Below are positions 29,082-45,077 of a stretch of DNA of 64,000 nucleotides, piece after piece (within the stretch, counting starts at the first letter, position 1; every line of letters starts with the position of its first letter). A program made the translations under genes and the position numbers. Origin of the DNA: a plasmid. The notes below the pieces were generated by a model that was not told the DNA's origin, did not search any database, and saw only the letters and a program-made list of their open reading frames with translations. The stretch lies in the sequence record NZ_CP017043.1, one strand, 5' to 3'.

Positions 29082-29545
29082 AAAACGAGCGGATCGACAT
29101 ACATATAATTCCCATCCGCCCCTCGAATAATGTACTCGAGGTGCAGATGAGGTCCGGTCACGCGTCCCGTTGCACCAACAAGACCGATAATCGTGCCCTG
29201 TCCCACATACTCATCGACTCTGACATCAACCTCGGACATATGAGCATAGCGTGTATATCCATCAAATAACGGATGATAGAGAAGCACTTGATTACCATAA
29301 CCGTCCGCATAGTCGCCGGCTTGTATGACAACGCCGTCGAATAATGCGGGGATAGGCGTTCCTGCCGGATACCCTAGGTCGACACCTGCGTGGAAAGACC
29401 ATTCTCCTGAGATCGGATGGTAACGCCATCCGAACGCAGACGTGACAGGAAGATCCGAAGCGTATGCCTGTGCTGACAGGAAAACTAAAAGCCCCATTAG
29501 AGCCGCAGAAAAAAACGCTTCTCGTATTCTGCCCACATTATCCAC
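29072..29545 (-). CDS. secreted M23 (LytM) family peptidase
   Basis: Signal peptide AALMGLLVFLSAQAYA. HAGVDLGYPAGTPI...GYGNQVLLYH...YAHMSEV...GLVGATGRVTGPHLHLEY gives the HxxxD and HxH zinc-site motifs. Confidence 0.85.
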   Translation of the reverse strand: MDNVGRIREAFFSAALMGLLVFLSAQAYASDLPVTSAFGWRYHPISGEWSFHAGVDLGYPAGTPIPALFDGVVIQAGDYADGYGNQVLLYHPLFDGYTRYAHMSEVDVRVDEYVGQGTIIGLVGATGRVTGPHLHLEYIIRGADGNYMYVDPLVLWQ

Positions 29546-29568: not shown

Positions 29569-30129
29569 TTATTCGAGCTCTATTTCTCTTGACTTCGCAA
29601 TGGACTTCATTTCCTTAAAGTAATCTATAAGAGCAAAATATTTCCTTCGCATCAGTCGTTTGTCTACCGAATCTGCTGGGTAACGCTCATCAATATGCGA
29701 CATGAAATCTTCCAGAGATCTTTCAACACCGTCTCCACATTGAACAATATTGCGATCTACAAAATAGCGTATGTCTGACGGAAGGCCTGCATATCCAAGA
29801 GATATAATTTGTACGATGTTTTCGCTTGAATTTGTTAAATCATTTAAGTCAGCATGATGTAATATTGCTCCATCGAGCTTTGCATTTGATATATCCGCAC
29901 CTCGAAGATCTGCATAGGATAAATCTGCATCACGTAAGTCGGCAAATTGTAATTGAGCACCATATAAATCTGCTCCGCCGAGATCCGCGCGCCGCAAATC
30001 TATGCCGCGAAGTTTAGCATGACGTAAGCAAGCTCCACCAAGAAATGCGTTCTGCAGGTTACAGTGCGATAAATTCACCCTTTCCAAATCTGCACGTTGC
30101 CCCCTTCTTCCGAGAAAGCCCATTTCCAA
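29569..30129 (-). CDS. pentapeptide-repeat protein (186 aa)
   Basis: Tandem A(D/N)LxG pentapeptides: ADLRGADLGGADLYGAQLQFADLRDADLSYADLRGADISNAKL. Confidence 0.85.
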   Translation of the reverse strand: MEMGFLGRRGQRADLERVNLSHCNLQNAFLGGACLRHAKLRGIDLRRADLGGADLYGAQLQFADLRDADLSYADLRGADISNAKLDGAILHHADLNDLTNSSENIVQIISLGYAGLPSDIRYFVDRNIVQCGDGVERSLEDFMSHIDERYPADSVDKRLMRRKYFALIDYFKEMKSIAKSREIELE

Positions 30130-30387
30130 TGCAAGTCAAGAATATTTTTCAGTTGATCTTGTGTCAGCTTTCTTCCTTTTCTAAAAGATGGCTTTTTATT
30201 TCTCATCACAATGCTCCTCCTAAACGAGAGAGAAAACGGTCATCCTTCTGATATTTAACGCCGGATATATAAACAGACGTATCATCTTTACTGCCTCGAC
30301 TTTAGAAGAAACATCATTCCCCAGCCCATGATGCCAAGCAAAGCAACAACGACACGAGGGGCGGTGGACTCCACCCAAGCATTCAGA

Positions 30388-30594
30388 TCAACAACAATCA
30401 TCACAGGATTCTCCTAAGTCCTCGACCACCTGAATTTCCATAAAATCAGATTCAAAACAGGAACAGGATTGTTCCACAAGTTCATGGAGATTATCAAGAT
30501 TCTCCACCTTCTCACGCGCCTCATCTTCATCCTCCGCCTCGATCACGATCTCACCGGACAGATCATAAGAAAACGCAACCATGAATTTTCTCAT
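30388..30594 (-). CDS. small acidic Cys-rich protein (68 aa)
   Basis: Start MRKFMVAFSY with a GGAGG RBS 5 nt upstream. Very acidic, with a C-terminal CSCF...CDDCC. Confidence 0.4.
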   Translation of the reverse strand: MRKFMVAFSYDLSGEIVIEAEDEDEAREKVENLDNLHELVEQSCSCFESDFMEIQVVEDLGESCDDCC

Positions 30595-30669
30595 ACGATG
30601 ACCTCCTCTCGTGGTTCGTATATGATTTCCTTGCCAAGTTGTGCTCCCAGTTTTGGAGTACATAGATGG

Positions 30670-30745
30670 CATCCGCTTCGCGTCATCGCCGTTGTGATGC
30701 GAAGATACGCATCCCATTCCAGACCGCTCTACAAGAAACTCTATA
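30670..30745. repeat. 76-bp perfect direct repeat, copy 1
   Basis: catccgcttcgcgtcatcgccgttgtgatgcgaagatacgcatcccattccagaccgctctacaagaaactctata is identical to 32268-32343. It contains an imperfect hairpin cttcgcgtcatc..gatgcgaag. Confidence 0.9.
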
Positions 30746-30898
30746 ATGCTTTGTGTGCGGGTGATTGGCGCGGTGCATTACAATCGCTGCGGGATCATGG
30801 TCTATGGCGACATCGACGCTCCGTCCGACGGCACACGCAATACCGCTTGAAGCACCGCCGCCACCCGCAAAAACATCAACGATGATCTCATTCAGCAT
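30746..30898 (-). pseudogene. C5-cytosine DNA methyltransferase (dcm-like) N-terminal fragment, truncated after about 50 codons
   Basis: MLNEIIVDVFAGGGGASSGIACAVGRSVDVAIDHDPAAIVMHRANHP carries Dcm motif I (FxGxGG) and the following IDxD region. The frame then reads through the 76-bp repeat into nonsense and stops. No downstream methyltransferase motifs are present. Confidence 0.65.
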
Positions 30899-31256
30899 TT
30901 TCTAATTCCTCGAAATAGAACCTGATCGGCCGGTGCGCTTTATCGGTCTCTGTGATTACCCCATATTGCATGGCTATGTGAAAGATAAAAACCTTCTCCA
31001 GACGCTCCAATACGGTTCCGACATATTCGCGAAACTGCTCAATATCAAGCGTGCTTTTATAGTAATTGCATTTCCTGCACGCAGGTTTGTAGTTGGAGAG
31101 AGCGTTCTCTCCCCCTTTACGCAAAGGATAGACATGATCTACCCGCATTTTTTGGATGTTATCAATCTTTCTCCCACAGTACGCGCAGCGTCCCCCATAC
31201 ATTTCATAAACTTGACAGCGTACCTGCTGAGAAATGCGTTTTCTCTTCGTCTGCAT
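30888..31256 (-). CDS. HNH endonuclease
   Basis: CAYCGRKIDN...VDHVYPLRKGGENALSNYKPACRKCNYYK is the HNH/zinc-finger core. Confidence 0.8.
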   Translation of the reverse strand: MQTKRKRISQQVRCQVYEMYGGRCAYCGRKIDNIQKMRVDHVYPLRKGGENALSNYKPACRKCNYYKSTLDIEQFREYVGTVLERLEKVFIFHIAMQYGVITETDKAHRPIRFYFEELENAE

Positions 31257-31307
31257 TTCAACGCCTCCAAATCGACAACAACAGCAGTCTCAATCGCCGC
31301 TGTGGCG

Positions 31308-32216
31308 CTACGCAATATAATCCTCAAAGCGATCGCAGCTACGGAAGATGATTTTATTATTCACCCATCTCTGCAAACGTCGAGCGGTCACAGGAGCGTT
31401 GGGTTTATCGTAGACCATAATATATGGATCATACGCATGATCTTTGAGCCAGTAGACGCGCGCCAGGTCTTCCTCGTGCGTGCTCCAATAATTGACAAGC
31501 ACATATACGCGCCTCTTCCGGAAATCTGTGACAGATGTGCGTTTTGCAAAGGCAGATAACGCTCTAGGAACGCTCCAATCCTTTGGATTATCCCATGCAA
31601 AATGCAGCATTTTCACTTTACAGGCGCTGAGGAGATCCATATTTTCCGGTGTGAACAGTCGCGCGTCGAGACCTTGCGTAAAATCAATCCATGCGCCGCT
31701 ATGAGCAAGCTGTTCTAAAAGTTCCATATGCTCTTTTGCCGCCAAAATATTGGGATCAAGCAGCTTGATTATGCGTTCCCCATGCCAAAATTCATTGAGA
31801 TCCGCGACTTTGTGACTTTCATAACCTTCTTTCCAGCCAACGATGCAAAAGGGACATGCACGCGGGCAACCTCTCGTCAGAAAGCCATAAGCAATTCCTT
31901 GAATGTTATAGAGCGAATAATCCGGACGCATATGTTCAATATGCGCCGGAAGCTGTGCGGCGCTGGTAGTTCCCGTCCCTCCGATTTCTGCACCAATCTC
32001 CGCAAGGCGTATGGAAAGCCCTTGATTCTGCGTAAACACACAGGCTGCATAAAGTTTTTCATATGGCTGAAACAAATTATTCCCCAACAGGACATCTTCA
32101 GGATAAAGCAGATGAACCTGGTCGCCCTGTTTCTTATGCCACGCCGACAGCTTCATCAGGCACAAATTGGGGAATTTCCCACCATCTACGTCAATAAGGC
32201 CAATAGTCATCGCCAT
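31308..32216 (-). CDS. radical SAM domain protein with an N-terminal extension of about 110 aa
   Basis: CxxxCxxC cluster in FLTRGCPRACPFCIV at about aa 117. The N-terminal segment IGLIDVDGGKFPNLCLMKLSAWHKKQGDQV is an extra domain ahead of the radical-SAM core. Confidence 0.6.
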   Translation of the reverse strand: MAMTIGLIDVDGGKFPNLCLMKLSAWHKKQGDQVHLLYPEDVLLGNNLFQPYEKLYAACVFTQNQGLSIRLAEIGAEIGGTGTTSAAQLPAHIEHMRPDYSLYNIQGIAYGFLTRGCPRACPFCIVGWKEGYESHKVADLNEFWHGERIIKLLDPNILAAKEHMELLEQLAHSGAWIDFTQGLDARLFTPENMDLLSACKVKMLHFAWDNPKDWSVPRALSAFAKRTSVTDFRKRRVYVLVNYWSTHEEDLARVYWLKDHAYDPYIMVYDKPNAPVTARRLQRWVNNKIIFRSCDRFEDYIA

Positions 32217-32267
32217 CTTTCACTTCTTCCACACTCTGAACTTCTATGAACGATGAAGAAAAACAGA

Positions 32268-32343
32268 CATCCGCTTCGCGTCATCGCCGTTGTGATGCGA
32301 AGATACGCATCCCATTCCAGACCGCTCTACAAGAAACTCTATA
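32268..32343. repeat. 76-bp perfect direct repeat, copy 2
   Basis: Identical to 30670-30745. It overlaps the 3' end and stop of the 117-aa wHTH gene. Confidence 0.9.
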
Positions 32344-32692
32344 CCTCAGAATTGATCTCGTAGATGTTTCGGTAAAAATTGTTATTCTCGTCCCGTGTTT
32401 GAATTCGGGTAATATATCCACAATCCACCAGCTGCTTCATATACTTCGCATAGGTATTCTTGTTGATGTTAAGGTCATAGCAAATCTGATCTCTGGGGAG
32501 ACAATCCGTATCGCCATATGCGCAGAGATAAGAGTAAATTGTCTTTGCAATCACATGTAAGTTTGGATCCTGCATGACAGATGTGCCGACTATGCCAGCA
32601 CCGTGTTCAAGCACATTTCTGGGATGTTGTCTGATACGTTCTTCCGTCACCTGCATATTAGAGTCTTGTATGTTGCTCATGATGACCTCCAA
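32339..32692 (-). CDS. winged-helix DNA-binding protein, RepA_N-like (117 aa)
   Basis: AKTIYSYLCAYGDTDCLPRDQICYDLNINKNTYAKYMKQLVDCGYITRIQTRDENNNFYRNIYEI follows the RepA_N consensus shape. Its last codons and stop lie inside repeat copy 2. Confidence 0.55.
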   Translation of the reverse strand: MEVIMSNIQDSNMQVTEERIRQHPRNVLEHGAGIVGTSVMQDPNLHVIAKTIYSYLCAYGDTDCLPRDQICYDLNINKNTYAKYMKQLVDCGYITRIQTRDENNNFYRNIYEINSEV

Positions 32693-32742
32693 AAACTAAT
32701 AATCACGCACTTTCATGCTCTTCAACGTGCGCAAAATAACAG

Positions 32743-32997
32743 CTACTCGTTCATCGCATCTACAAGCCATTGAGGAGCAAGAACATTTTTTCCATCATGG
32801 TCAAATAAGACTTGATATGTTACAAAGAATTCTTCTGCCGCCTCTTCAGTGTAATGTTCTTCTGCCAACTCTCCATCTTCAGGACAAAGCGTTTTCCAAA
32901 AAGAACTTTCGAGAAGTTGTTTTATGGCAGTGTCTCTTGCCCCAAAGCCAATACGATAATACGGATAAAGCACGCGAGCATTTCCCATAACGTTCAC
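32743..32997 (-). CDS. hypothetical protein (84 aa)
   Basis: ORF track. Acidic, no TM. Confidence 0.35.
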   Translation of the reverse strand: MNVMGNARVLYPYYRIGFGARDTAIKQLLESSFWKTLCPEDGELAEEHYTEEAAEEFFVTYQVLFDHDGKNVLAPQWLVDAMNE

Positions 32998-33045
32998 CGC
33001 TTTCTCGATTTATCAATCATCTGCCGTAAAAACATTTTTACCTTT

Positions 33046-34656
33046 TTAGATACTATGACCATGAATGATCTCACTTCGCTCAGGAGCTTCATACATGCGC
33101 GAGAGAAAATAATCGTTCTCCTGATATTGAACACCAGCCACATCAACACTTCGGGTATCCATAATAATCGAGTATTTGTTCTTTTTACCGAGGATAGAAA
33201 TCACCTGCATATCTGTCTTGCATCCATAAAATTTACAAGTCTGTAACAGCTCATCAAACAAAACAGCCTTCATCCCGCATAAAGAAATATAATTCAGCCC
33301 AGGGTATTCAAATATATTTAGGCGACCTAAAGACGTACACTCATCCATTAGAATCAAGCATCTGTATCTCCCTTTCATTGGCTCTCCCTTATATCCAAAT
33401 ATCCAGAGCATTTCCAAGAACACACGAAAAATTTGGGATGGTTGGCAAGAATTACCCGGTGGAGTCACCAGATACAAAGATACGGGCTGCGTGTGATTCA
33501 TAAGATCTTTTATACAGAAATCACTTCTTTCCGTATGGTGTCTAAGCACTGGATCAAGATAATCTTTGAGTGCTGCATTTATGATGGACAGAATATAACA
33601 CGCCTGATTATTCGGTATTGACACGATTCCGTGAAGTTTATGGTCAATAATTTTTTGTACCTTTTCCGGTTCCTCTAAAGATATATATGGATACTCCAAG
33701 GGTGTATCATATATTTTCCAATCCAAAGGCATCCAGGCATAAACAGGAGCTCCGTCTTTATCGACCATTCCAACCGTATGATCCTGTATATATTGAGCAA
33801 CATCATAAAGAGATAGAGACTTTGGATGCCGATCTTGATCAGCGTGATATGTATTTTTGAGATGCAGGATGATTTTCGTAAGAACATCGGCAACTTCTTC
33901 TACAACGTCATCACATACCATCATTTTCCCCATCCGGATCAAGGCCGACGAAAGCGTCTTTGCTACAAATAGCTTGTCAGGGCTGTCCATCCGTATCTCG
34001 TCAAGAGGATTCCAGCACGCAGATGTATCATCTGTTGCTGTCGGCTCGAATTTGATTATCGTGTTCCCGAGCCGCTTTCGATAACCTGCGGTGACTTCCC
34101 AGTATTCGCCTTTAATATCATGCACGACTACACTAGATTTCCAACCGTCAAGGAGCGTCGGGATGATAAATCGATCGCTTCGTCTGTGATTCGACTCACC
34201 CTCAATCAATATATGATTACTGGAATTATCTCGTAAATATAGGGGCATAGGGTTCATGTGGCGTTCGACAAACCAATTATATGCTGCTGTCCTTTTATCC
34301 GCAGGAAGTATCTTAGTTAATGGGGGCACTACGCCACTAAGAATTGTGTCATACTGGCCAATTACAACACCTTCATCAGAGATCAGTCCCATCTTGGCAT
34401 ATTTTTTATAACTTCCCTGCTTATTCCCGTCCTCATATTTTTTACAGAAATGTATAAGTATCGCAGTCAATAAACTAAACGCAACAAATGGTGTAATTAG
34501 ACCGATCAAGGCAACATCTTCTGATACTGTAAAATTAAGAATCAGCACTACAATGCTGCAAAACGTCAATCCCAAGACGCTGAGCTTAACGGTAAACACA
34601 GCCGTTATAAGCATGAGAAAAAAGCAGAAAACAGTCCATAAATCAATATGTATCAT
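33046..34656 (-). CDS. VirD4/TraG-family coupling-protein paralog with a degenerate Walker A
   Basis: N-terminal TMs. HILIEGESNHRRSDRFIIPTLLDGWKSSVVVHDIKGEYWEVTAGYRKRLGNTIIKFEPTATDDTSACWNPLDEIR aligns to the 967-aa T4CP (HMLLMAPTRSGKGVCTIIPTGL...DPKGELWSLTSGYRKN...LKFQPLCTDGSAARWNPLAEVN). The P-loop lysine and glycines are replaced by RRSD. Walker B LILMDECTSLG is retained. Confidence 0.75.
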   Translation of the reverse strand: MIHIDLWTVFCFFLMLITAVFTVKLSVLGLTFCSIVVLILNFTVSEDVALIGLITPFVAFSLLTAILIHFCKKYEDGNKQGSYKKYAKMGLISDEGVVIGQYDTILSGVVPPLTKILPADKRTAAYNWFVERHMNPMPLYLRDNSSNHILIEGESNHRRSDRFIIPTLLDGWKSSVVVHDIKGEYWEVTAGYRKRLGNTIIKFEPTATDDTSACWNPLDEIRMDSPDKLFVAKTLSSALIRMGKMMVCDDVVEEVADVLTKIILHLKNTYHADQDRHPKSLSLYDVAQYIQDHTVGMVDKDGAPVYAWMPLDWKIYDTPLEYPYISLEEPEKVQKIIDHKLHGIVSIPNNQACYILSIINAALKDYLDPVLRHHTERSDFCIKDLMNHTQPVSLYLVTPPGNSCQPSQIFRVFLEMLWIFGYKGEPMKGRYRCLILMDECTSLGRLNIFEYPGLNYISLCGMKAVLFDELLQTCKFYGCKTDMQVISILGKKNKYSIIMDTRSVDVAGVQYQENDYFLSRMYEAPERSEIIHGHSI

Positions 34657-35009
34657 ACGATCACTACCTCTCTCGGCTCATATATAATCTCCTTTCCAAG
34701 CTGCTCTGCAAGAGCAAGTTCCTCCCGAACGCCTCTGCTGTTCTCCCAGTTCTGCAGCACATAGATGGCATCGGCGCAGCGCACCATCTCCTTGGTGATC
34801 TGCAAATAGGCCTCCCATTCCATTCCCCACGGCAATACCGCAGGGTTCAGAACGATACTGTCTTGCTCTTGCAGCCGCTGTTCTGCCACGGCAAATATCT
34901 GCTTATAGTCAGCAATACCAGTGATTGCCCCAGCAATGAAAACAATTTTTCCCTCAAGATTCATTTTTACTGTCCTCCATGTCGAAATGGTCTCCAAATC
35001 TACAATCAC
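34653..35009 (-). CDS. DUF4406-like protein (nucleoside 2-deoxyribosyltransferase-like fold)
   Basis: KIVFIAGAITG...VLNPAVLP...ADAIYVLQNWENSRGVREELALAEQLGKEIIY matches the DUF4406 pattern. ATGA overlap with the upstream gene. Confidence 0.55.
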   Translation of the reverse strand: MIVDLETISTWRTVKMNLEGKIVFIAGAITGIADYKQIFAVAEQRLQEQDSIVLNPAVLPWGMEWEAYLQITKEMVRCADAIYVLQNWENSRGVREELALAEQLGKEIIYEPREVVIV

Positions 35010-35512
35010 TGCAAATAATAGGCGCCTGATTCTATATCGCCGTATTGAAATTCATCATGATCTGTAATCTCAACAAGATCTGCTCCAAAAAAATGAGAGC
35101 CGTCTATATAAAATTTCCCAGCACGATATATTCCTGTCTCTATCATTTCCTCTCTCACTCGATATACGGGCTTTCCGTTTTCCAGGAGCACGACAACTTG
35201 ACTTCCCTTCTCCCAATTTGCCATAGATGCTAGGGCATCCTTTTTATGCAGGTAGAGCACCCCTTCACGAACGAGTTTTGCTTTATCGACGCCATCTGAG
35301 ATCGTGCAGCCTGTTGTTAGTACAGATTCACTGTCTGTTGATCGGATTTCACGTTCGTAAATTACCGCTCGATAAGCGACGAAAGTCTCTCCGGGATCTA
35401 CTGGAGATGTAAAAATATTTATGGCCGTAATGATGCCTCCAAACACAACCATTAGTACCATACTGGCGATTATTATGAACAAGAATTCGTCATCGTCTCT
35501 CATATCCAACAC
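35006..35512 (-). CDS. membrane-anchored hypothetical protein (168 aa)
   Basis: TM FIIIASMVLMVVFGGIITAINIF followed by an extracytoplasmic domain. It heads the operon with the two downstream genes. Confidence 0.5.
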   Translation of the reverse strand: MLDMRDDDEFLFIIIASMVLMVVFGGIITAINIFTSPVDPGETFVAYRAVIYEREIRSTDSESVLTTGCTISDGVDKAKLVREGVLYLHKKDALASMANWEKGSQVVVLLENGKPVYRVREEMIETGIYRAGKFYIDGSHFFGADLVEITDHDEFQYGDIESGAYYLQ

Positions 35513-35651
35513 CTTTCTAAACGCTCGTTAAATTCTCTTGCCTCGGATATAATCAGGTAGGTGACTGTAAATCACGATAAAAGACTTTTCTCAGCAACAA
35601 AAAATTGGTACAATAAACGCAAAATTTTTCGTTCCACGAAGGGGACTGACA

Positions 35652-35963
35652 ATGACAATGAAAATATCAGACTGCCTACGGAAAACCAGAAAACAACAAG
35701 GGTTATCACAGGCAGAAATGGCTGAGAAGCTACGGATAAACATGCGTACTTACCAAAACTACGAACGCGGAATAACAAAGTTTCCGGCCGAGGAGCTATA
35801 TAAGCTGGTGCTCATCTTTGGCATATCAGCAGATGATTTCTTCGAAATAGAGCGACATGATGCGCCTGTGCAGCAAGCACTCGATAATCTCAGAGCAGAG
35901 ATGAAACGCCAGCATAAGGAAATCCGGGAGCTCCTCGCTGCATGCCTTCCTGATAAAGGTTGA
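35652..35963 (+). CDS. XRE-family HTH transcriptional regulator
   Basis: LRKTRKQQGLSQAEMAEKLRINMRTYQNYERG is an HTH_3 motif. Confidence 0.8.
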   Translation: MTMKISDCLRKTRKQQGLSQAEMAEKLRINMRTYQNYERGITKFPAEELYKLVLIFGISADDFFEIERHDAPVQQALDNLRAEMKRQHKEIRELLAACLPDKG

Positions 35964-35969
35964 CGCAGC

Positions 35970-36164
35970 CTAATTCCACCAGTATGTGAGGTCAACCCCT
36001 AGTGCCTGACTCAAAACTTCAAGTGTAGCAATGTTTTTGGGGCGCATCCGATCACGTTCCCAGTTATAAATAGAACGGCGTGTGAAGCCGGTAATCCCTG
36101 CAAGATCCGTCTGTGAAAAGCCTCGTTCCTCTCGTAAGTTCCGAAGCCTTTCCCCGAACGTCAT
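35970..36164 (-). CDS. XRE-family HTH transcriptional regulator (64 aa)
   Basis: LRNLREERGFSQTDLAGITGFTRRSIYNWERD. Confidence 0.8.
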   Translation of the reverse strand: MTFGERLRNLREERGFSQTDLAGITGFTRRSIYNWERDRMRPKNIATLEVLSQALGVDLTYWWN

Positions 36165-36733
36165 GGCTCTCCATTGACAGTTTCAAAATACCTGCCAATG
36201 ACCTCGATTACCTGGAGCAGCGTCTGATGAAGCTCTTCCAGGCGCAATTCCTCGATTTTGTAAAAATTCGTTTTACAAGACAGCATTTTGTTGATTCGAC
36301 AGATGTCTGACTCGAGTTTACGATAGATGGGATGTACTACCCATTTTCCCTCTGTGTGCATGGAGATGAATGAATCAAACTCCTGCTGAACGCCAGTGAT
36401 ATAATCTGTAAGATGAATGATCTGCTGGATGTGGATCTTATCAAAATTGGAGATGTGGATCTCAGCCGAAATTTTTTTCAGCTGCTTTTTGCTCATGTCG
36501 ATGTACTGATCTATCAGTAGTGATAGCTCTGATACACCGCCCACAGCTAATATCTGCCGATATTTCCGTATCTGTTGCTCCAACTTGCGATTCTCACGCT
36601 TCAAGCTCTCGTAGTCTGCCGGAGTAATCTTAACAATACGTTCAATCTTGGGCTCACGGGATTCCAGCGCTTGAATTTTCTCCTCGAGTTCACGGATATA
36701 TTCCGCTCTATTTTTCTCGATCTCGACTGACAT
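36161..36733 (-). CDS. coiled-coil hypothetical protein (190 aa)
   Basis: ORF track. Heptad-rich N-terminal half. 4-nt overlap with the downstream XRE gene. Confidence 0.5.
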   Translation of the reverse strand: MSVEIEKNRAEYIRELEEKIQALESREPKIERIVKITPADYESLKRENRKLEQQIRKYRQILAVGGVSELSLLIDQYIDMSKKQLKKISAEIHISNFDKIHIQQIIHLTDYITGVQQEFDSFISMHTEGKWVVHPIYRKLESDICRINKMLSCKTNFYKIEELRLEELHQTLLQVIEVIGRYFETVNGEP

Positions 36734-36968
36734 AGTATGCCTCCCTCTAAGCCCTTGTATAATGCCTCTTGTGCCTCCTTTTGATATTTGCTATAATCAA
36801 AATGGAGTTTGCACGATGAAGATTGACTGTGGATAGTCTTGTATCAGCATGGCGCAGATTCTGTTTCACATATCCGTACCGTCCCATCGGTACGGATATT
36901 TTTTTGAACGGCATGATAATCCACCATCTTTCTGAAACTCGCCAAAGGTATGGGGTCTACGAATATTC

Positions 36969-37265
36969 CTAGATGACGTAATATCTCATCATGCGCGAAA
37001 AATCATATCCATTCGTCCCACGGTATTCAGAGAGGCGGATCAGGTTCTCGTTTTGCTCAGCCTGTTCGGCCTCGTCATACATATATTTGACTTCGATCAG
37101 CTGCGCATCAATGCGCTGCGCAAATCTACGCACAAGGTCACGGAAAGTACGCGTTGACATATTTACATCACTGACCAGCCACTTCTGTCCACTATCAAGC
37201 CTTGCAAGACATTTTCGATAGTTTCCGCAAGCAAACTTGACATCATGGATCTTCCATTCGATCAT
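36969..37265 (-). CDS. hypothetical protein (98 aa)
   Basis: ORF track. No recognisable motif. Confidence 0.4.
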   Translation of the reverse strand: MIEWKIHDVKFACGNYRKCLARLDSGQKWLVSDVNMSTRTFRDLVRRFAQRIDAQLIEVKYMYDEAEQAEQNENLIRLSEYRGTNGYDFSRMMRYYVI

Positions 37266-37285
37266 GATCTCTTGCCCCCTGCGGC

Positions 37286-37483
37286 TTAAACTTCAAGATA
37301 TTGCTCTTCAAAAAAACGACGGTTTGTCTTGCCGCGAATCGTAAATTTACCGCGTTTCCGCAGCTCTTCATTGAGTTCAGCAATGATCTTATACGCCTTG
37401 GACATAGAGATTGCACAAATCTCCGAAACCTCTGCGGGTGTAATGAAGTTGCTCGTGGATTTTTTATATTGCATACTCTTCAC
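37286..37483 (-). CDS. xis: excisionase/MerR-like small HTH DNA-binding protein
   Basis: 65 aa. ITPAEVSEICAISMSKAYKIIAELNEELRKRGKFTIRGK is a typical Xis-type HTH. It lies next to the integrase module. Confidence 0.6.
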   Translation of the reverse strand: MKSMQYKKSTSNFITPAEVSEICAISMSKAYKIIAELNEELRKRGKFTIRGKTNRRFFEEQYLEV

Positions 37484-37489
37484 ATCCTC

Positions 37490-37720
37490 TCAGCCCGCAT
37501 TCGCGGGCTTTTTATTTCCCTGCTCCCCACCAACCTCAAGCAATCTATACCACTCGTTTGAAAACCCCAAAACAGCAGCAATGCGCTTTGCCACTTCTGG
37601 AGAAGGACGGCGGGTTCCTTTTTCGATAAAGTTATAATATTGCCGGCTGATGGCGCATTTCTTTGCGACATCCACCTGCGACAGATTCCCTTTGATGCGC
37701 ATTTCTGTCAACCATTTCAT
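37490..37720 (-). CDS. XRE-family HTH regulator (76 aa)
   Basis: LTEMRIKGNLSQVDVAKKCAISRQYYNFIEKG. Confidence 0.8.
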   Translation of the reverse strand: MKWLTEMRIKGNLSQVDVAKKCAISRQYYNFIEKGTRRPSPEVAKRIAAVLGFSNEWYRLLEVGGEQGNKKPANAG

Positions 37721-37874
37721 TTTTTCACCACCTAATTGCTACATTCTGTTGACAAGAAGATAATACGTCATATTTTCCTTCCTGTCAACATAGTGTAGCT
37801 AATTATTTCGAATAGCTATATTCTGTTGCATCCATTGATGTTGCTACAAATAGTTGACATAATGTAACAGGGGG

Positions 37875-38234
37875 TTGCAGATGAACAGAATGAAATTATT
37901 GCGTGAGCAACACAACCTGAGTCAAACAGATCTAGCTAAAAAGTTAAATATAAGCCGACAGTCATATAATTTCTACGAAAATGAAAAGCGGGATCCAGAT
38001 ACCGCAATGCTAGTTCGAATAGCCGATTTCTTTAATGTCAGCCTGGATTATCTGCTTGGTCGAACAAACGACCCTTCACCGATCGTAAAAGAAATGACTC
38101 CCTCCTATCAGGAGGAAGTCATACAGGATCTTGAGGATATTACACCAGATATGGCCAGCGAAATACGTCAGTATATCAGCTATCTAAAACACAAAAAAGG
38201 AGCTGCTGAAATGGGTATTACGAAAAAAAAGTAG
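37875..38234 (+). CDS. XRE-family HTH regulator (119 aa)
   Basis: LLREQHNLSQTDLAKKLNISRQSYNFYENEKR. Divergent to the minus-strand XRE gene, giving a switch-like arrangement. Confidence 0.8.
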   Translation: MQMNRMKLLREQHNLSQTDLAKKLNISRQSYNFYENEKRDPDTAMLVRIADFFNVSLDYLLGRTNDPSPIVKEMTPSYQEEVIQDLEDITPDMASEIRQYISYLKHKKGAAEMGITKKK

Positions 38235-38337
38235 TACCTTTTTATCCCGTGATCTCAGGATTTACATAAAGCTTTTCAAAAAATGAAGTCTTTGTGCTTC
38301 TATTACAGAAACAGCACTTGAGAAAGGCGATGATCTC

Positions 38338-39423
38338 TTGTCCGTCCATAAAGACACAAAGCGCGGAACATGGTACGTAAAGATCAAATACACCGACTGG
38401 ACAGGCGAAAAGAGGGAAACGACCCGCAGAGGATTCGCAAAGAAAAAAGACGCGCAGCTATTTGAGCAGGATTTTCACCGGCAGAAACAAGGCGCTCATT
38501 CCATGACCTTCAAGGCATTATATGATCTATACATGGAGGACATAAAACCACGCATAAGACCTACAACATATCGAAGCAAGGAATATATGTTCACCTCAAA
38601 GGTGTTGCCGTTCTTCGCAAATTTGCCTTGCGACCAGATTACTCCTGCAAAAATACGGCAGTGGCAAAACGAACTTGTCAAAGGCGATTATCAAGAGACA
38701 TACCTCCGTACTATCAACAACCAAGTTGCAGCCATCTTCAACTTTGCGGTAAATTATTATGGTCTACCAACTAACCCCGCAAAACGAGCAGGGATGATCG
38801 GAAAGAGTCATGCCGATGCAATGAGATTCTGGACGGTTGATGATTTTCAAAAATTTATCAATCACACCACTACTCCACTATACAGAATTTCTTTTTTAAT
38901 CCTTTTCTGGACAGGGATGCGTGTTGGAGAGTTTTTGGCACTGACCTTGGAGGACTTTGATTTTGACAAAAATTTGATACACATAACCAAAAGCTACGCA
39001 CGGCTAGATAACAAGACTATAATCGGCCCGCCTAAGACACCAAAGAGCCGCCGTGATGTCAGCATCCCTGCATTTCTTGTCGATGAAGTCCAGCAGTTTA
39101 TCCAAGCGCAGCATTCAATCAATCCAAATGCACGATTATTTGAAACCGGTAAACATGGATTATCTTATGAAATGAAGCGTGTAGCTGCACAGGTTGGCAT
39201 AGAGAAAATTCGCCTTCATGATCTTAGGCACTCTCATGCCTCCTATCTCATTCACCGAGGAATACCGATCATAGCGATTTCACAACGCCTCGGTCATGAA
39301 AAAATCGAGACTACACTACAAACCTACGCTCACCTATATCCACAAGAGCGCGATATGATTATTGCTGCCATCGAAAGCGATCCGGCAACAAAAGGAGGGT
39401 CAAACGGGGGTCACGGAAAATAA
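38338..39423 (+). CDS. int: tyrosine site-specific recombinase (integrase)
   Basis: Core-binding N-terminal domain. Catalytic region with TGMRVGEFLALT (Arg I), LHDLRHSHASYL (His/Arg II) and TTLQTYAHL (Tyr). Confidence 0.9.
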   Translation: MSVHKDTKRGTWYVKIKYTDWTGEKRETTRRGFAKKKDAQLFEQDFHRQKQGAHSMTFKALYDLYMEDIKPRIRPTTYRSKEYMFTSKVLPFFANLPCDQITPAKIRQWQNELVKGDYQETYLRTINNQVAAIFNFAVNYYGLPTNPAKRAGMIGKSHADAMRFWTVDDFQKFINHTTTPLYRISFLILFWTGMRVGEFLALTLEDFDFDKNLIHITKSYARLDNKTIIGPPKTPKSRRDVSIPAFLVDEVQQFIQAQHSINPNARLFETGKHGLSYEMKRVAAQVGIEKIRLHDLRHSHASYLIHRGIPIIAISQRLGHEKIETTLQTYAHLYPQERDMIIAAIESDPATKGGSNGGHGK

Positions 39424-39470
39424 ATAAGCGCAGATACCCTTGATATACAAGGCGCTCTGCGCTTATTTCT
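39422..39470 (+). terminator. hairpin overlapping the integrase stop codon
   Basis: aaataagcgcag...22-nt loop...ctgcgcttattt is a perfect 12-bp stem. The trailing U-run is weak. Confidence 0.4.
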
Positions 39471-39616
39471 ACTATTCGAGTTCAACTATACCACATTAAC
39501 ATTGTTTTGCAACCCCTGTATTTCAGCCCTTTTCATTCTCTCTATTCTACGGATTCTCCATATTCTACATCTTTTTCGAGTTTTTCGGGGTCAAATGAGG
39601 GTCAGAGGATTCCTCA

Positions 39617-40072
39617 TCAAAAAGGAATATCGTCATCATCAGCAGACATGACCTGCTGGAAAAGCGATTCGTCACTCTGATCCTCCTCCGGGATCGGCTG
39701 CTGGCTTTCCGGATCTGCCATCGAGTTGAGGGCGTTCGCCGAGACCATAGTCGCCTGTTTCGGCGTCAAGAACTCAATGTTGTTCGCCACAACCATCGTT
39801 GCATATCTTTTCTGACCGTTTTTTTCATAGGTATTTACGTCCAGCCGACCGATCACGTTGACAAGATGTCCTTTGGACAGTGATTTTTTGCAGGATTCGG
39901 CCAGCGCATTCCACGCCTCGATGTAGAAATAATTGACGGGATACCGTCCCCTCTCGTCTTTTTTGAATCCCTTGCGTACAGCAAGAGGAAAATGAATGAC
40001 AAGGTGCCCTGCCTGTGTGGTGTACTCGCTGATCTTGGCTGCGAGGCGGCCGCTTAATACAACCTGATTCAT
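39617..40072 (-). CDS. ssb: single-stranded DNA-binding protein
   Basis: OB-fold N-terminus and an acidic C-terminal tail ending DDDIPF. Confidence 0.85.
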   Translation of the reverse strand: MNQVVLSGRLAAKISEYTTQAGHLVIHFPLAVRKGFKKDERGRYPVNYFYIEAWNALAESCKKSLSKGHLVNVIGRLDVNTYEKNGQKRYATMVVANNIEFLTPKQATMVSANALNSMADPESQQPIPEEDQSDESLFQQVMSADDDDIPF

Positions 40073-40382
40073 ATTTATCCCTCCTATGAGTTATTTATGA
40101 TGTGTTCTTATATCTTTATGAATTGGGGAAAGGTTTAAGATGTGGTTATGAACATTTTAGTATGAAATATGATGGGTTTGCCATTCGTTCATAGCCCGTT
40201 AGGAAATCATCTGATATTTTTCAGAATATCTCTTAACAGGCTATGAACCTAGATACCTCATTTCGTCTGTGCGCCACACTTATCGCACGCACCTGGATGA
40301 TCCTGACGATTCCCGCAGCTGGGGCATTCAAACGTAGCCATATGTACCATTCTTCTCACCTCCTCACGGTTCATCATCCATA

Positions 40383-42665
40383 TCATGAAAGATTGGGAAG
40401 GCCATCTTTGTCCCAAACAGGAGCAGCTCCGCAGCGGTCAGAGCAATACCAATAGTATACCCCCTTCTTCTTTTTGCTCTCAGCTCGTTTCAGATACCCC
40501 TTGCCGCATTCGGGACACACAACAATCACAGGTTTATCTTTATGATCTGAAAATGCAGCATTGCAGACCTCTCGATCTTCGCACGACCAAAATGTTCCGA
40601 ACTTCCCCTTGACTTGACGCAGCACCTTTCCGCAGCGCGGACATTTGTCTGTGCGTTTATCTTCCTTTTTGGCCGCGAAGTCCGGCTTTCCCTTTTTATC
40701 GGGCGCCATCGTTTTGCAGTCGGGGTAGCCGGAGCATCCCCAAAAAGCACCAAACTTTCCTTTACGCAGCCGCATTGGCTTCCCGCAATTCGGGCACGTC
40801 GGAAGATCCTTGTTGGTCTGCAGCTGCACATTCTTCGCATCAGCAAGCAGCTCATTGAGAATATCAACTTGTTTCGTCAAAAAGGAATCCAGAGGAATGG
40901 ATCCGTCTGCGATCCGATCCAGATCGGCTTCCCACAACGCCGTTGTGTCCGGATATGTGATTTTGTCCGGCAGCATGGATATGACCATACGCCCCAGCTC
41001 AGTAGGAACAAGATATTTCTTCTCCGTGGCGACGGAGCGCGCTTTTTTCAATCCCTCGATAATCCCGGCTCGTGTAGCCTCTGTCCCGATTCCTTTGCAC
41101 TCCTTGAGACTTGCGGCAAGCTCCTTATCCTTGACATATTTATGGATTTCTTTCATTGCCTGGAGCAGCGTGGCGTCGGTAAAGCGCTTTGGCGGTGTTG
41201 TAACTTTCTCTTTGACCACTCCGTGGTCATATCGTATGACATCACCTTCTGCGACTGCTGGAAGCACAGGAGCTTCTTCACCGTCTTCATCCGGATCCTT
41301 TTTATCCTTCTGGTAAATTTCCTTCCAGCCCATTGTCAGGATCGTTTTTCCGTTCCCGACGAATTCCTCATCCGCACACGAGATGATGACTTTGGTCGCC
41401 TGGTATGTATGGATGGGATAGAACTGGGCAAGATAGGCTTTTACCACGAGCAAATAGAGTTTCTTTTGCTCATCAGATAACTTTGTCAGATCTGCTGGGA
41501 CTGTTGTTGGAATCAGCGCGTGATGCGCCGAGATCTTCGCATCGTTCCATGCACGAGACACAATCTTCACATCAGCCCGCGCAGCGAATTCATCCAGGTG
41601 CTCCTCTGAGATGCCTTCTATATTCCTTATAACTGCTGCTGCATCGCTCAGCTGGTTGGTTGGCAAATACTCACAATCGGAACGCGGATACGTTGTCAGC
41701 TTCATCTCATAGAGCGACTGCATGGCATCGAGCACCTGCTGCGGCGACAGGCCGAATCTTCGTCCGGCTTCCACCTGCAGCGTAGACAGGCTGTAAGGAA
41801 GGCGCTGTCCTTCCTGCTTTTTCTTCTGCTCAACAGCAATAATTTGAGCGCCGTCTCCATGATTGGCCGCAGACTCTATTTTGGAAAGCAACCCCTCCGC
41901 AATTTCTTTTGAAAGCAGCCGATTTTCAGAATCAAGTCCTTCCATATCGGGCTTGCATTTCCATGCTGTTGGTATGCTGCCGTTTTCGTGCTGCCATGTC
42001 ACCTGCAGCACATAATGCGTTGTCGGTCTAAATTGACGAATCTCCTCTTCACGCCTCACAACGAGTGCGAGCGTCGGCGTTTGGACACGACCGACATGGA
42101 CAACGGAATCATATCCTGCGTCTCTGCTCTTGATCGTATAAGCGCGAGAGAGATTCATCCCGACGAGCCAATCTGCCTGGCTGCGTGCGAGAGCGCTGTC
42201 CCGAAGACCTGTATAGTCTTTATTATCCCGCAAGTCTCCGAGCGCCTGAACCACGCTTTTCTGATCCAGTGCATTCAGAAGGATCCGCTTCACCGGCTTC
42301 TTGTTGCTAATATAGAGCAAAACCTCATCAATCAGCAGCTGACCCTCGCGATCTGGGTCTCCTGCATTGATGATATAGTCTGCTTTTTTTGCAAGCTCCT
42401 TGATAATCTTGAACTGCTTCGCTGCGTCTTTCTTGACCTTCAGCTTCCATTCATCAGGGACGATGGGAAGATCGTCCATCGCCCATTTTTTATAGCGCTC
42501 GTCATATTCACCCGGATCGTATTGCTCCAGCACATGGCCAAAACACCAAGTAACGATGTCCTGGCCATTGTTAATCTCAATGCAGCCGTCTTTGGAAGTG
42601 CCCTTCCCTAGATTTTCTGCAATCGCTCGGCCTAAACTTGGCTTTTCAGCGATAAATAAGCGCAT
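40383..42665 (-). CDS. topB: DNA topoisomerase III (type IA) with C-terminal zinc ribbons
   Basis: TOPRIM start MRLFIAEKPSLGRAIA. 760 aa. Three C-terminal C4 zinc-ribbon repeats (CPNCGKPMRLRKGKFGAFWGCSGYPDC, CPRCGKVLRQVKGKFGTFWSC, CPECGKGYL...YYWYCSDRC). Confidence 0.9.
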   Translation of the reverse strand: MRLFIAEKPSLGRAIAENLGKGTSKDGCIEINNGQDIVTWCFGHVLEQYDPGEYDERYKKWAMDDLPIVPDEWKLKVKKDAAKQFKIIKELAKKADYIINAGDPDREGQLLIDEVLLYISNKKPVKRILLNALDQKSVVQALGDLRDNKDYTGLRDSALARSQADWLVGMNLSRAYTIKSRDAGYDSVVHVGRVQTPTLALVVRREEEIRQFRPTTHYVLQVTWQHENGSIPTAWKCKPDMEGLDSENRLLSKEIAEGLLSKIESAANHGDGAQIIAVEQKKKQEGQRLPYSLSTLQVEAGRRFGLSPQQVLDAMQSLYEMKLTTYPRSDCEYLPTNQLSDAAAVIRNIEGISEEHLDEFAARADVKIVSRAWNDAKISAHHALIPTTVPADLTKLSDEQKKLYLLVVKAYLAQFYPIHTYQATKVIISCADEEFVGNGKTILTMGWKEIYQKDKKDPDEDGEEAPVLPAVAEGDVIRYDHGVVKEKVTTPPKRFTDATLLQAMKEIHKYVKDKELAASLKECKGIGTEATRAGIIEGLKKARSVATEKKYLVPTELGRMVISMLPDKITYPDTTALWEADLDRIADGSIPLDSFLTKQVDILNELLADAKNVQLQTNKDLPTCPNCGKPMRLRKGKFGAFWGCSGYPDCKTMAPDKKGKPDFAAKKEDKRTDKCPRCGKVLRQVKGKFGTFWSCEDREVCNAAFSDHKDKPVIVVCPECGKGYLKRAESKKKKGVYYWYCSDRCGAAPVWDKDGLPNLS

Positions 42666-42733
42666 ATAGCAAGCCCCCTTTCAGGATAAGTATATCCCGA
42701 AAAGGGGCTTGAAATTCCTATCATTTTTCAAAA

Positions 42734-43084
42734 CTAGATCAGGTTGTACTCTTTCAATTTCTCCATTCCTATACTTTGATCAATATAGTGGCTCTCGTCA
42801 TAGTCAAGCGGACGTGATTTTTGTGCCTCAAAGACACGGACATCATTTGAGTCGTCTCCCTCTTCCCCTATGTGAGATTTTATAAATTCGGAAGTCGGTA
42901 CATCTAAAGCTCTGGCGATTTCCCCTAACAACAAGGAATCCCTTGTAGGACCGCCCTCGCTCATGAGACGAATAAAAAGATCGTGCTTTGTCCTCGTATG
43001 GCACTCAGCTTCGACTTCCTCAATAGTCATCCCGCGCATTCTGATAAAATTGTTCAGCCTCTTTGCATCTACCCAGTACAACAT
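42734..43084 (-). CDS. HTH-domain protein (116 aa)
   Basis: IRMRGMTIEEVEAECHTRTKHDLFIRLMSEGGPTRDSLLLGEIARALDVPTSEF is an XRE-like HTH. Confidence 0.55.
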   Translation of the reverse strand: MLYWVDAKRLNNFIRMRGMTIEEVEAECHTRTKHDLFIRLMSEGGPTRDSLLLGEIARALDVPTSEFIKSHIGEEGDDSNDVRVFEAQKSRPLDYDESHYIDQSIGMEKLKEYNLI

Positions 43085-43098
43085 ATCAATGCCTCCTA

Positions 43099-44022
43099 CT
43101 ATCTGATATTATCATTGCTCTTTCTATACTTGTCGCACGCTTCTTGGAACGTCTTTCCCATTGTAATCAGAATATCTTTAAGCGCTCTCTGCGCTTCACT
43201 GGATACGCGAGTCGCAGAAATTTCTTTCATGAAATCATCTATCCTCATTGAAGGTTTATCGTCAATAACATCTCTGCTGATAATTGTACGCAATCCCAAA
43301 TCACAAGCAAGGTGAATAGTATCTCCGTTGTCCGGAATAAATTGAACCTGCATAAAGCGGTTTTGCAGGTCAGATTGTCGAAAATGGCATTTTTCAATAT
43401 AGCTATCCAAAAACCCACTGTGTGTAAAGTCACATTTCTTAAAAGTGGCTTCATCAAAAGTACATTGTATAAAGGCTACATTCAAAAACTTGTTATCGGT
43501 AAATACAGACGTAGAAAAATCGGCACAAACCGGATTTACCGCCAAAAAACGATTCCCTTCGAGATGACAATTTTTTTCAAGCCAGACATGGTTGAGATTT
43601 GCTTCACGAAACACATTATCCGAAAATCGACACTGGTTGAATTTTGATTTTCCCAACATTGTGTTCTGCAGATCACATTGATTGATTCTACATACAGACA
43701 TAGTTGTTTGTAGAATTTTGGCATTTAAGAAATTGCAACTTTCAAAAGTAACGTCAGATATATTTGCATTGCTTAATTGTGCATCAGTGAAATCACAATC
43801 CTTAAAATGCAGACGTTCCATGGAAACGCCCGACAAGTCCGCTCCACGAAAAATCATGGAGTGAAACGGATGGATTTCGTTTGAGGAGCAAAAATCAAAA
43901 CCCCGTAAATCACAATTTGTAAAATCTGCTTGTCTGCCGGATTCGTGATTCGTTTGCATCCATCGGTCATGATCGCTTAGAATCCGGCGCACCTCATCCG
44001 AAGAAACCTGCCGTCTATCCAT
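43099..44022 (-). CDS. pentapeptide-repeat protein (307 aa)
   Basis: Long run of A(D/N)LxG-type pentapeptides: CDLRGFDF...FRGADLSGVSMERLHFKDCDFTDAQLSNANISDVTFESCNFLNAKIL... Confidence 0.85.
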   Translation of the reverse strand: MDRRQVSSDEVRRILSDHDRWMQTNHESGRQADFTNCDLRGFDFCSSNEIHPFHSMIFRGADLSGVSMERLHFKDCDFTDAQLSNANISDVTFESCNFLNAKILQTTMSVCRINQCDLQNTMLGKSKFNQCRFSDNVFREANLNHVWLEKNCHLEGNRFLAVNPVCADFSTSVFTDNKFLNVAFIQCTFDEATFKKCDFTHSGFLDSYIEKCHFRQSDLQNRFMQVQFIPDNGDTIHLACDLGLRTIISRDVIDDKPSMRIDDFMKEISATRVSSEAQRALKDILITMGKTFQEACDKYRKSNDNIR

Positions 44023-44467: not shown

Positions 44468-44770
44468 TTATCCTAAATTGTTCATGGAGGCAAAACCGCC
44501 GGATGCAGCAGCTTTTCCGTGCTGGCACAGATACTCGCGGTTCATCACAAACAGCAGATATAGATCGTTCTCATTGTAGGAATCCAGAATACCGGCTTCC
44601 TCTGCAATGAGCCCGACACGCAAAAGCTTCTCATATCGAATTCTTTTGCGCTCCTTATCCATATCTGCTGAGACCGCATCCATCTGCTTTTTGGTTTCAA
44701 CCAGCTGCCGCTTTAAGCGTGCCAGTCTCTGCTGATTGCTCTCCACTGCCGCCACATCCTCCGCCGCCAA
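44468..44770 (-). CDS. hypothetical protein (100 aa)
   Basis: ORF track. Coiled-coil N-terminus. Its 5' side flanks the oriT candidate. Confidence 0.45.
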   Translation of the reverse strand: MAAEDVAAVESNQQRLARLKRQLVETKKQMDAVSADMDKERKRIRYEKLLRVGLIAEEAGILDSYNENDLYLLFVMNREYLCQHGKAAASGGFASMNNLG

Positions 44771-45077
44771 TGTTACGATTCAAGCAGAGTATACCATGCA
44801 CGCTCCCATTTTTCCCAAAATGGGAATCAAGTTTCCCGTTTGTTTCCCACTTTATTGTTCCCGTTTTGCTAGAATGGGAGTAACTGAAGTTACTCTAAGC
44901 TCACTTATGCATTTCAGCAGGCTGAAACGCCGTTCGACCCAATTCTTACGCCGCTTCGCGGGCGAATTTTTTTGTCGGTCGCCTACGCTCCCTGAACCTG
45001 CCGTTGGCAGTTTGGCGCTATCGCTTATCGTCGCTCCGCGCCGCAGATTTTTACGATCAACTTAGAAGAGAAAACGC
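44771..45077. other. candidate origin of transfer (oriT) upstream of the relaxase
   Basis: 307-bp non-coding stretch. Inverted repeats cccatttttcccaaaatggg (44805-44824) and gagtaactgaagttactc (44878-44895), and direct ttcccgtt/ttcccact iterons. It sits immediately 5' of the MOBQ relaxase gene. Confidence 0.45.

Follow-up and report, generated by a model that had tools for sequence, protein, structure and literature searches.

Pentapeptide-repeat proteins (PRPs) are very common, and their mechanism is known for the gyrase-binding group only (Qnr, MfpA, and AlbG). Two genes for such proteins lie in the DNA considered here, a 64,000-nt stretch of sequence record NZ_CP017043.1, which is called the window below and whose positions are used for all coordinates. 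The window holds nearly an entire conjugative element. An earlier reading made from the letters alone (the sequence-only reading) had already taken it for a conjugative replicon with two PRP genes, and both points stand: type IV secretion system (T4SS), relaxase, ssb, and topB genes are found, and the two open reading frames (ORFs) at 29569..30129 and 43099..44022, both on the minus strand, are present and match Pfam strongly. The longer product, of 307 amino acids (aa), is named PRP307; the shorter ORF is part of a gene for a 212-aa protein, PRP212. The main subject is PRP307 and the small gene that follows it, large parts of which appear to be swapped as one block among related elements.

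PRP307 and its operon

PRP307 belongs to a minus-strand operon that begins beside a presumed origin of transfer (oriT). The features on this side of the element are as follows.

45078..48056, plus strand: relaxase gene, 992 aa, MOBQ-like (NCBIfam MobQ, E 1e-20; precomputed Pfam matches to MobA_MobL and LPD7)
44771..45077: presumed oriT, an intergenic region with five inverted repeats that separates the relaxase gene from the PRP307 operon
44468-44770, minus strand: small coiled-coil gene, 100 aa, one of the operon's two first genes, beside the presumed oriT
44056-44439, minus strand: small coiled-coil gene, 127 aa, the other of the two
43099..44022, minus strand: PRP307, intact, 307 aa, with a cap helix (aa 8-23), a beta-helix (aa ~31-225), and a C-terminal alpha/beta domain (aa ~223-306)
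42734..43084, minus strand: partner gene, 116 aa, 14 bp downstream of PRP307 and 68 bp before topB
42850..43800: variable cassette of ~950 bp, comprising PRP307 codons ~75-307 and partner codons ~1-78
40383..42665, minus strand: topB, DNA topoisomerase III, 760 aa (Pfam Topoisom_bac, E 9e-109, with Toprim and two Zn_ribbon_Top1)
39617..40072, minus strand: ssb (Pfam SSB, E 2e-22), the last gene before the element end

Counted from the intergenic region next to the relaxase gene, PRP307 is the third ORF and ssb the sixth. The long PRP gene had been placed two genes from topB, and only one, that of the partner, lies between them.

PRP307 is matched by PF13599 (E 2e-21, 76.3 bits against a cut-off of 38) and by PF00805 (E 3e-19, 68.5 bits). 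Its repeats run from about aa 31 to 225 in some 38 units, mostly with phenylalanine or leucine at the centre, and show two irregularities, a 10-residue stretch at aa 46-55 and a one-residue bulge near aa 156. They make up 63% of the protein, and those of PRP212 make up 42% of its 212 aa. Describing the two proteins as almost entirely repeats was therefore too strong, since both have an N-terminal helix and a C-terminal domain of ~85 aa. Structure prediction, the check proposed at the time, yields a right-handed quadrilateral beta-helix and no other fold. The closest solved folds are gyrase-binding PRPs, whose helix is of equal length, and PRP307 superposes full-length on the MfpA structure despite its low family score.

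Known topoisomerase-interacting PRPs end in a single dimerising C-terminal helix. PRP307 has the ~85-aa non-repeat domain in its place, and on profile searches this domain is an orphan. Against 1.84 billion cluster representatives, its profile returned family members only, plus spurious ankyrin-repeat proteins with a short IHLAC motif, and profiles of the C-terminal domains of both PRPs found nothing below E 0.02 among PDB sequences.

The assignment to the Qnr/MfpA/AlbG type does not hold as family membership. Against Qnr, MfpA, and all curated PRP models of NCBIfam, the two window proteins score 16-61 bits, where the cut-offs are 125-750. For Qnr (NF033086, cut-off 240; subfamilies 425-500), PRP307 reaches 44.5 bits and the 186-aa ORF of the short gene 24.7 bits; for MfpA (NF000349, cut-off 360), the two PRPs reach 33.1 and 34.8 bits. 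HalA, effector of the Hailong anti-phage system (NF051894, cut-off 250), gives 60.6 bits over aa 25-101 of PRP307 only (profile positions 49-122 of 338), and the neighbouring genes that were scanned include no HalB-type partner. PADLOC (2023 library) gives no match for either PRP or for the partner. The setting of AlbG and McbG is also missing, as no gyrase-poison biosynthetic cluster was found among the window ORFs scanned with Pfam; the neighbouring genes serve conjugation and DNA processing.

Set against MfpA, Qnr (QnrB1, AhQnr, and EfsQnr), and AlbG/McbG, PRP307 differs in its N-terminal cap helix, its 85-aa alpha/beta C-terminal domain, its degenerate F-centred repeats, its obligate small partner gene, and a neighbouring topoisomerase that is of type IA and not gyrase. 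By these comparisons it resembles the group and is not a member of it; the allelic cassette behaviour described below also sets it apart. A protein of Selenomonas sp. oral taxon 920 matches PRP307 at 100% identity, and among species genomes the close full-length relatives of PRP307 (44-60% identical) occur in Selenomonas only. No full-length relative was found on plasmids; a PRP from a P. amygdali plasmid, whose gene adjoins that of an ABC ATPase, is unrelated.

Similarity of fold and equal helix length to the gyrase-binding PRPs raise the possibility that PRP307 and its partner bind a topoisomerase, either the topoisomerase III of the element or the gyrase or topoisomerase IV of the host, in the way that MfpA, Qnr, and AlbG bind gyrase. 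Binding would adjust supercoiling or decatenation while the element is transferred and replicated, or shield the enzyme from poisons. The N-terminal coils of the PRP307 family (aa 31-80) are its most conserved part, with a mean pairwise identity of 82%, and could contact a conserved enzyme. The scores far below the Qnr and MfpA cut-offs speak against this explanation, as does the literature, where no precedent was found for a PRP acting on a type IA topoisomerase. Nor did the searches find any paper on a PRP gene adjoining, or a PRP acting on, topoisomerase III, or any that links PRPs to topoisomerase III or to the establishment regions of integrative and conjugative elements (ICEs). Taken with the gene-order evidence below, which bears on it from both sides, a topoisomerase target is considered doubtful.

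The partner gene and allelic replacement

The 116-aa partner protein has two conserved motifs, GGPTR and an acidic C-terminal PLDYDESHY. It has no match in Pfam, NCBIfam, PHROG, PADLOC, or PDB, and the sole Pfam result up to E 10 is DUF6290 at E 0.014. A helix-turn-helix had been suspected by eye; Pfam and PDB sequence searches lend it no support, and hhalign gives 0.2% against two Xre proteins of the window.

The order of accessory genes, PRP, small gene, topB, and ssb is kept in relatives whose PRP is just 46% identical, and also in S. infelix. Elements in which topB is 66-70% identical have two different backbones with a PRP (314 or 365 aa), a small gene (112 or 100 aa), and topB. The 314-aa PRP (locus L045) is 24% identical to PRP307 and is aligned with it by hhalign at 99.8% (E 7e-29) over 298 columns that include the C-terminal domain, while the 365-aa PRP is homologous over cap and repeats (hhalign 97.6%). 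The small partner proteins are homologous as well (E 7e-18), with GGPTR and the C-terminal PLDYDESHY in common. Partner homologues come after PRP307-like genes in four loci (L044, L045, L095, and L098), and down to 21-25% PRP identity the pair is mostly found before an element-borne topB. The pair immediately precedes topB in three settings: the Selenomonas ICE family, a Mitsuokella metagenome-assembled genome, and a third backbone. Genes that recur near it in distant elements are topB, ssb, and those for HU and primase.

A metagenome scan with the partner protein alone as query returned 55 loci, whose neighbours were scored by tblastn. About 39 have a PRP body directly upstream of the partner gene, eight have a PRP remnant, and eight have no PRP; topB follows downstream in about 40. 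The eight remnant loci keep an intact and sometimes duplicated partner gene, with the PRP reduced to its first ~62 codons and topB absent or a fragment. Joint loss of PRP and topB at these loci was considered as a sign that one depends on the other, and it is uninformative because the three loci with inspected ORFs (L074, L077, and L088) are decayed element ends, followed by the chromosomal genes uppP and pth.

Two loci carry the pair without topB. At L098 (955-6411), two PRP genes (309 and 387 aa) flank an HNH gene and are followed by the partner gene and then an integrase gene; at L095, there is no topB within 2.9 kb. Conversely, a Pectinatus element (topB 56% identical) has kept relaxase, ssb, and topB and has no PRP. 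The constant unit is consequently the PRP with its partner, and topB is a frequent but not an obligatory neighbour. Judged by gene order, PRP307 and the 116-aa gene are a conserved pair. The position ahead of topB in about 40 of the 55 loci would suit a protein that acts on a topoisomerase; the pairs without topB and the Pectinatus topB without a PRP would not.

Comparison with a close relative (L054) shows where the pair varies. Over 8.6 kb the window is 97-100% identical to this locus (95-100% in the flanks on either side of the cassette) except in the cassette, where identity falls to 57-85% in 60-bp bins, and mostly to 57-77%. The N-terminus of PRP307 and the C-terminal tail of the partner lie outside the cassette and are conserved. 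Several further loci have a topB that is 97-98% identical to that of the window, with a PRP at 60-62% and a partner at 78-79%. Within the PRP307 family, the middle coils (aa 81-165) are the least conserved part, with a mean pairwise identity of 40-46%.

From these alignments, the PRP body and the N-terminal domain of the partner are read as a cognate allelic unit that is swapped as a block, and their joint replacement suggests that the two interact, physically or functionally. The pattern is typical of conflict or specificity genes and would argue against a conserved housekeeping target. The sequence-only reading had linked the long PRP to topB. Their adjacency is real, although the link is indirect, because topB stays 97-100% identical where the PRP body has been replaced (~62%) and the invariant companion is the 116-aa gene. 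The lack of co-variation between topB and PRP is a further point against a topoisomerase target, and a housekeeping gyrase would not drive allelic diversification. In its layout the pair is like operons of the acr-aca type, in which a variable effector gene on a mobile element is followed by a small gene at a conserved position and is subject to cassette-like replacement.

A different explanation for such an arrangement is a toxin-antitoxin-like system or a means of competition between elements. PRP307 would then be a growth-inhibiting inhibitor of a DNA enzyme (e.g. gyrase) and the partner would neutralise it, thereby stabilising the ICE or, by pairing that is specific to the allele, discriminating against related ICEs. 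The order of a large gene followed by a small one resembles that of HigBA-type modules. The co-replacement of PRP body and partner N-domain, the 14-bp gap between the genes, and the acidic tail of the partner are in keeping with this. Growth was also affected by overproduction of some members of a tested set of DNA-mimic and anti-restriction proteins that included McbG and QnrB (PMC7261183). Neither protein is like a known toxin or antitoxin family, however, and the element already has a HipA-type kinase. The eight decayed loci, which retain the partner beside a 62-aa PRP remnant, show an order of decay that is unusual for a toxin-antitoxin pair. This explanation is regarded as improbable.

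PRP307 might also be a structural or scaffold protein without DNA mimicry. Its beta-helix would present the C-terminal domain or recruit other proteins (relaxosome, coupling protein), or the protein might be translocated like the effectors PipB2, SopA, and NleL. Such a role is considered rather unlikely. It leaves unexplained why the gene recurs beside those for topB, ssb, HU, and primase, and why its alleles are replaced as a cassette.

The short gene and the rest of the element

The second PRP gene and its neighbours lie at some distance from the operon.

29072-29545: small M23 peptidase gene, adjoining the short PRP gene
29569..30206, minus strand: PRP212 gene, frameshifted; the 186-aa ORF at 29569..30129 is its downstream frame
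30100-30104, minus strand: G5 homopolymer, site of the one-base deletion (G6 to G5) that breaks PRP212
30888-31256: HNH endonuclease gene, in a phage-like cluster, ~700 bp upstream of the short PRP gene
31308-32216: phage-type radical SAM protein, 302 aa (phrog_9298, E 6e-90)
33046-34656: second, short coupling-protein-like gene
34653-35009: DUF4406 / nucleoside 2-deoxyribosyltransferase-like protein, in the same cluster

PRP212 begins with an ATG at 30206, preceded by AGGAGG 9 nt upstream, in a frame that stops early in the window. The closest homologues of the 186-aa ORF are 212-213 aa long and begin with MRNKKPSFRKGRKPTQDQLKNILDLHWKWAFSEEGGQRADLE. The 186-aa protein that had been described is thus not a native product but the tail of a frameshifted 212-aa gene. 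G6 is present in 12 of 13 related loci, and G5 is found in the window and in the remaining one (L038). As L038 is an independent assembly and has the same P14L change, the lesion is a real lineage trait and not the error of a single assembly.

The 186-aa ORF matches PF00805 (E 1e-28, 98.7 bits, cut-off 20.2). Repeats extend over about aa 37-125 of PRP212 in 18 units, 16 of which have leucine at the centre. In an AlphaFold2 model of an intact homologue (P0035; pLDDT 78), aa 16-30 form a helix, 18 ADLxx units come next, and the C-terminal domain has the order strand-strand-helix-helix; the best fold matches are Np275/276 and designed solenoids.

Relatives of PRP212 at a query coverage of at least 80% are found in 53 phage records of a phage collection. 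The PRPs of Listeria phages LP-101 (gp48) and vB_LmoM_AG20 (gp014) are 33-36% identical to it at 86-95% coverage. The virulent Herelleviridae phage vB_LmoM_AG20 carries the gene ~7 kb into its genome record, and the temperate phage LP-101 has it between DNA methyltransferase genes and genes for Gam and Sak4. A metagenomic homologue has Lar- and Tad2-like genes nearby on a phage-like contig of 175 kb. PRP212 is the same as these phage early-region PRPs in its cap helix, ADLxx repeats, and CGCF...YP C-terminal domain, and by this likeness it is a new member, broken here, of an uncharacterised PRP family of phages and mobile genetic elements. It is a separate early-gene PRP of phage type, probably with a host-interference role analogous to that proposed for PRP307. 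Another early-operon PRP is orf232 of the P22-like phages L and ST64T, cited for its setting alone (PMC8022706). SPO1 Gp44 was considered as a PRP that mimics DNA and was rejected: the paper shows an Xis-like domain and a disordered acidic region, and no PRP (PMC8208478).

PRP212 and PRP307 have only the N-terminal cap helix (L..H..W ... G.RADL) and the repeats in common, and through the cap helix and first repeats both match phrog_7713 and phrog_923. The phage early-region PRPs, including vB_LmoM_AG20 gp014 (lmo2312-like) and those of PHROG 7713 and 923, likewise have a C-terminal domain different from that of PRP307. The C-terminal domains of the two window proteins have a similar secondary structure (strands and two helices), and hhalign lends no support to homology between them (probability 0.15%). 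The two proteins are accordingly assigned to different families. This, and the inactivation of the short gene here, undercuts the idea that two distinct copies suggest two targets; reading the short gene as a frameshifted phage early-gene PRP guards against making too much of 'two copies'.

The short gene had been located between an M23 hydrolase and a dcm/HNH region. M23 and HNH genes do flank it, whereas the presumed dcm is the gene for the 302-aa radical SAM protein, and a C5-methylase occurs at the equivalent position in a relative only (L014). The exact M23 protein has no database record, probably owing to a different start call. The phage-like cluster of DNA-metabolism genes at 30888-35009 lies between the two PRP genes and may be DNA-modification or anti-defence cargo.

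Elsewhere in the window, the minus strand encodes a VirB-type T4SS (VirB4, VirB11, VirB10/TrbI, VirB9/CagX, and VirB8), a primase-like protein, a ParM-like ATPase, and a resolvase, together with several further features.

795-8006, minus strand: methylase-helicase fusion, 2403 aa, with an N6 DNA methylase domain and SNF2 helicase domains
16111-19014, minus strand: coupling protein, 967 aa
38338..39423, plus strand: tyrosine integrase (precomputed Pfam Phage_integrase), at the other end of the element from ssb and abutting the ssb end in the window
39397..39604, minus strand: junction region, bounded by two direct copies of the 17-mer TGACCCNNNTTTGACCC at 39397-39413 and 39588-39604
49476-50396, minus strand: HipA_C kinase gene, adjoining the resolvase gene, with a match (E 6e-30) to PDC-M03A, a candidate defence family of PADLOC
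57359-59386 and 61417-63111, minus strand: two VirB6/TrbL paralogues, the first with an N-terminal M23 peptidase domain

Large methylase-helicase proteins comparable to the 2403-aa fusion occur on other conjugative elements.

The ends of the element can be placed by comparison. The ssb end borders unrelated chromosomal genes (e.g. lytB, rpsA, and der) in five relatives, and the integrase end borders guaA-recX-recA in two others. In the window, as in a 64,381-bp contig (L014), one end runs into the other. The window therefore spans the junction of a ~64-kb ICE in circular or tandem form, and both PRP genes belong to one element. Oral metagenomes repeatedly yield stand-alone contigs of 62-67 kb, and the element is an ICE of ~64-66 kb that assemblies often give as a separate, probably circular molecule. 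Homology among elements stops ~135 bp past the ssb stop codon. The 17-mer TGACCCNNNTTTGACCC has exactly two matches in 64 kb, against none expected, both in direct orientation. The integrase gene contains one of them at its 3' end, and the other closely follows the ssb stop codon, with the junction between them; they are probably integrase-binding or att-related repeats. No near-identical plasmids were found in PLSDB. The nearest relative of the relaxase is that of S. ruminantium pSRC6, which is without PRP or topB.

The 310-nt spacer between topB and ssb has an imperfect palindrome of ~60 nt at about 40185-40245, TTCATAGCCCGTTAGGAAATCATCTGATATTTTTCAGAATATCTCTTAACAGGCTATGAA, which dominates its predicted single-stranded DNA fold and may be an operator or terminator; the whole spacer is no more stable than shuffled sequence (z -1.0). 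A scan for sigma-70 promoters and terminators yielded nothing informative.

The setting near the presumed oriT and a proposed decoy

Within the presumed oriT, a 52-bp stretch at 44963-45014 is 90% identical in a relative (L064), where its flanks are ~72% identical. It holds the hairpin CTGCCGTTGGCAG and is probably the oriT core. The position and synteny of the two coiled-coil genes are conserved among relatives, and their products are probably relaxosome accessory proteins; a likeness to TraD-type accessory proteins was read from the sequence by eye, with no family match in Pfam or PHROG. PRP307 lies together with ssb within ~30 ORFs of the inferred oriT, on the opposite side to the relaxase gene, which would be a leading-region location. 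For most MOB types, including MOBQ, anti-defence islands are enriched on the non-relaxase side of oriT (Samuel & Burstein 2024, PMC11541004).

This location with ssb, the fold and its dimensions, the pairing, the diversification, and the phage early setting of the PRP212 family favour a model in which PRP307 acts as a decoy. PRP307 and the 116-aa protein would form a cognate two-protein module within the operon for DNA processing and establishment that lies next to the presumed oriT of a ~64-kb Selenomonas ICE. The beta-helix, which is of MfpA/Qnr size, would serve as a rod-shaped, DNA-like decoy and fill the DNA-binding site of an enzyme that acts on the incoming or replicating element. The most plausible target would be a variable host restriction or defence nuclease, and the partner would be a specificity, adaptor, or regulatory subunit that touches the PRP where it varies. 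The probability assigned to such a two-protein decoy, directed at a DNA-processing or defence enzyme that itself varies, is roughly one in three (0.35). The model builds on observations of the fold, the helix size, the pairing of the genes, their synteny with topB and ssb, and the replacement of alleles as a cassette; from these we infer the contact between PRP and partner, the mimicry of DNA, the nature of the target, and the action in the recipient cell.

Other mobile elements and phages carry proteins for which a DNA-shaped decoy has likewise been proposed. ArdA (Tn916 and ColIb-P9) and Ocr (T7) are, like PRP307, products of mobile-element or phage genes that enter or are expressed early (PMC2731889, PMC7261183). 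Their folds are unrelated to that of PRP307, whose gene is not oriented for transcription from the transferred strand (T-strand). ArdA and Ocr are also strongly polyanionic. PRP307 does not have their very dense surface Asp/Glu, as judged from its sequence-level charge.

Several points weigh against a decoy. The first is this charge, which the sequence-only reading had expected to be DNA-like. At -7 (pI 5.8) it is mild, and it is not conserved, ranging from -13 to +3 in the close PRP307 family and from 0 to -7 in the distant paired relatives. This sets PRP307 apart from polyanionic mimics such as Ocr and ArdA. Its charge is near that of QnrB (-3, pI 5.7, for a QnrB10-like ORF from a plasmid read with an N-terminal extension), a point for the topoisomerase explanation. 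The second is orientation. The operon runs away from the presumed oriT and, given that transfer proceeds 5' first, the T-strand would be the coding strand, so that expression from incoming single-stranded DNA would not be possible. Neither the region ahead of ssb nor the presumed oriT showed an unusually stable single-stranded fold of the Frpo-like kind (z -1.0 and -0.9 against shuffled sequence).

The published record also weighs on this side. In the supplementary table of the study of anti-defence islands cited above, PRPs are just one five-member family. The literature searched shows no PRP as an anti-restriction factor in its native context, and BREX is not inhibited by QnrB or McbG (PMC7261183). 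Neither PADLOC nor PHROGs assigns a function to PRP307 or its partner, and the repeated occurrence immediately before topB suits a topoisomerase-related role just as well.

In a broader form of the decoy model, PRP307 and its partner may be a new, allelically diversified two-component conflict module, in which the variable coils and the cognate subunit set specificity against host defence nucleases or rival elements. This proposal is tentative. If it is true, the pair would be the first anti-defence system built on pentapeptide repeats to be described in its native genetic setting, and the phage early-gene PRPs related to PRP212 would be its phage counterparts. If the target is instead a topoisomerase, the regulation of such enzymes by PRPs would extend beyond gyrase. 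The fixed pair of PRP and partner, swapped as a cassette, provides a concrete and testable system for the roles of PRPs on mobile elements and phages. Should the target be a defence enzyme, PRP307 would represent a new structural class of anti-defence protein and would help to explain the spread of ICEs in oral Negativicutes.

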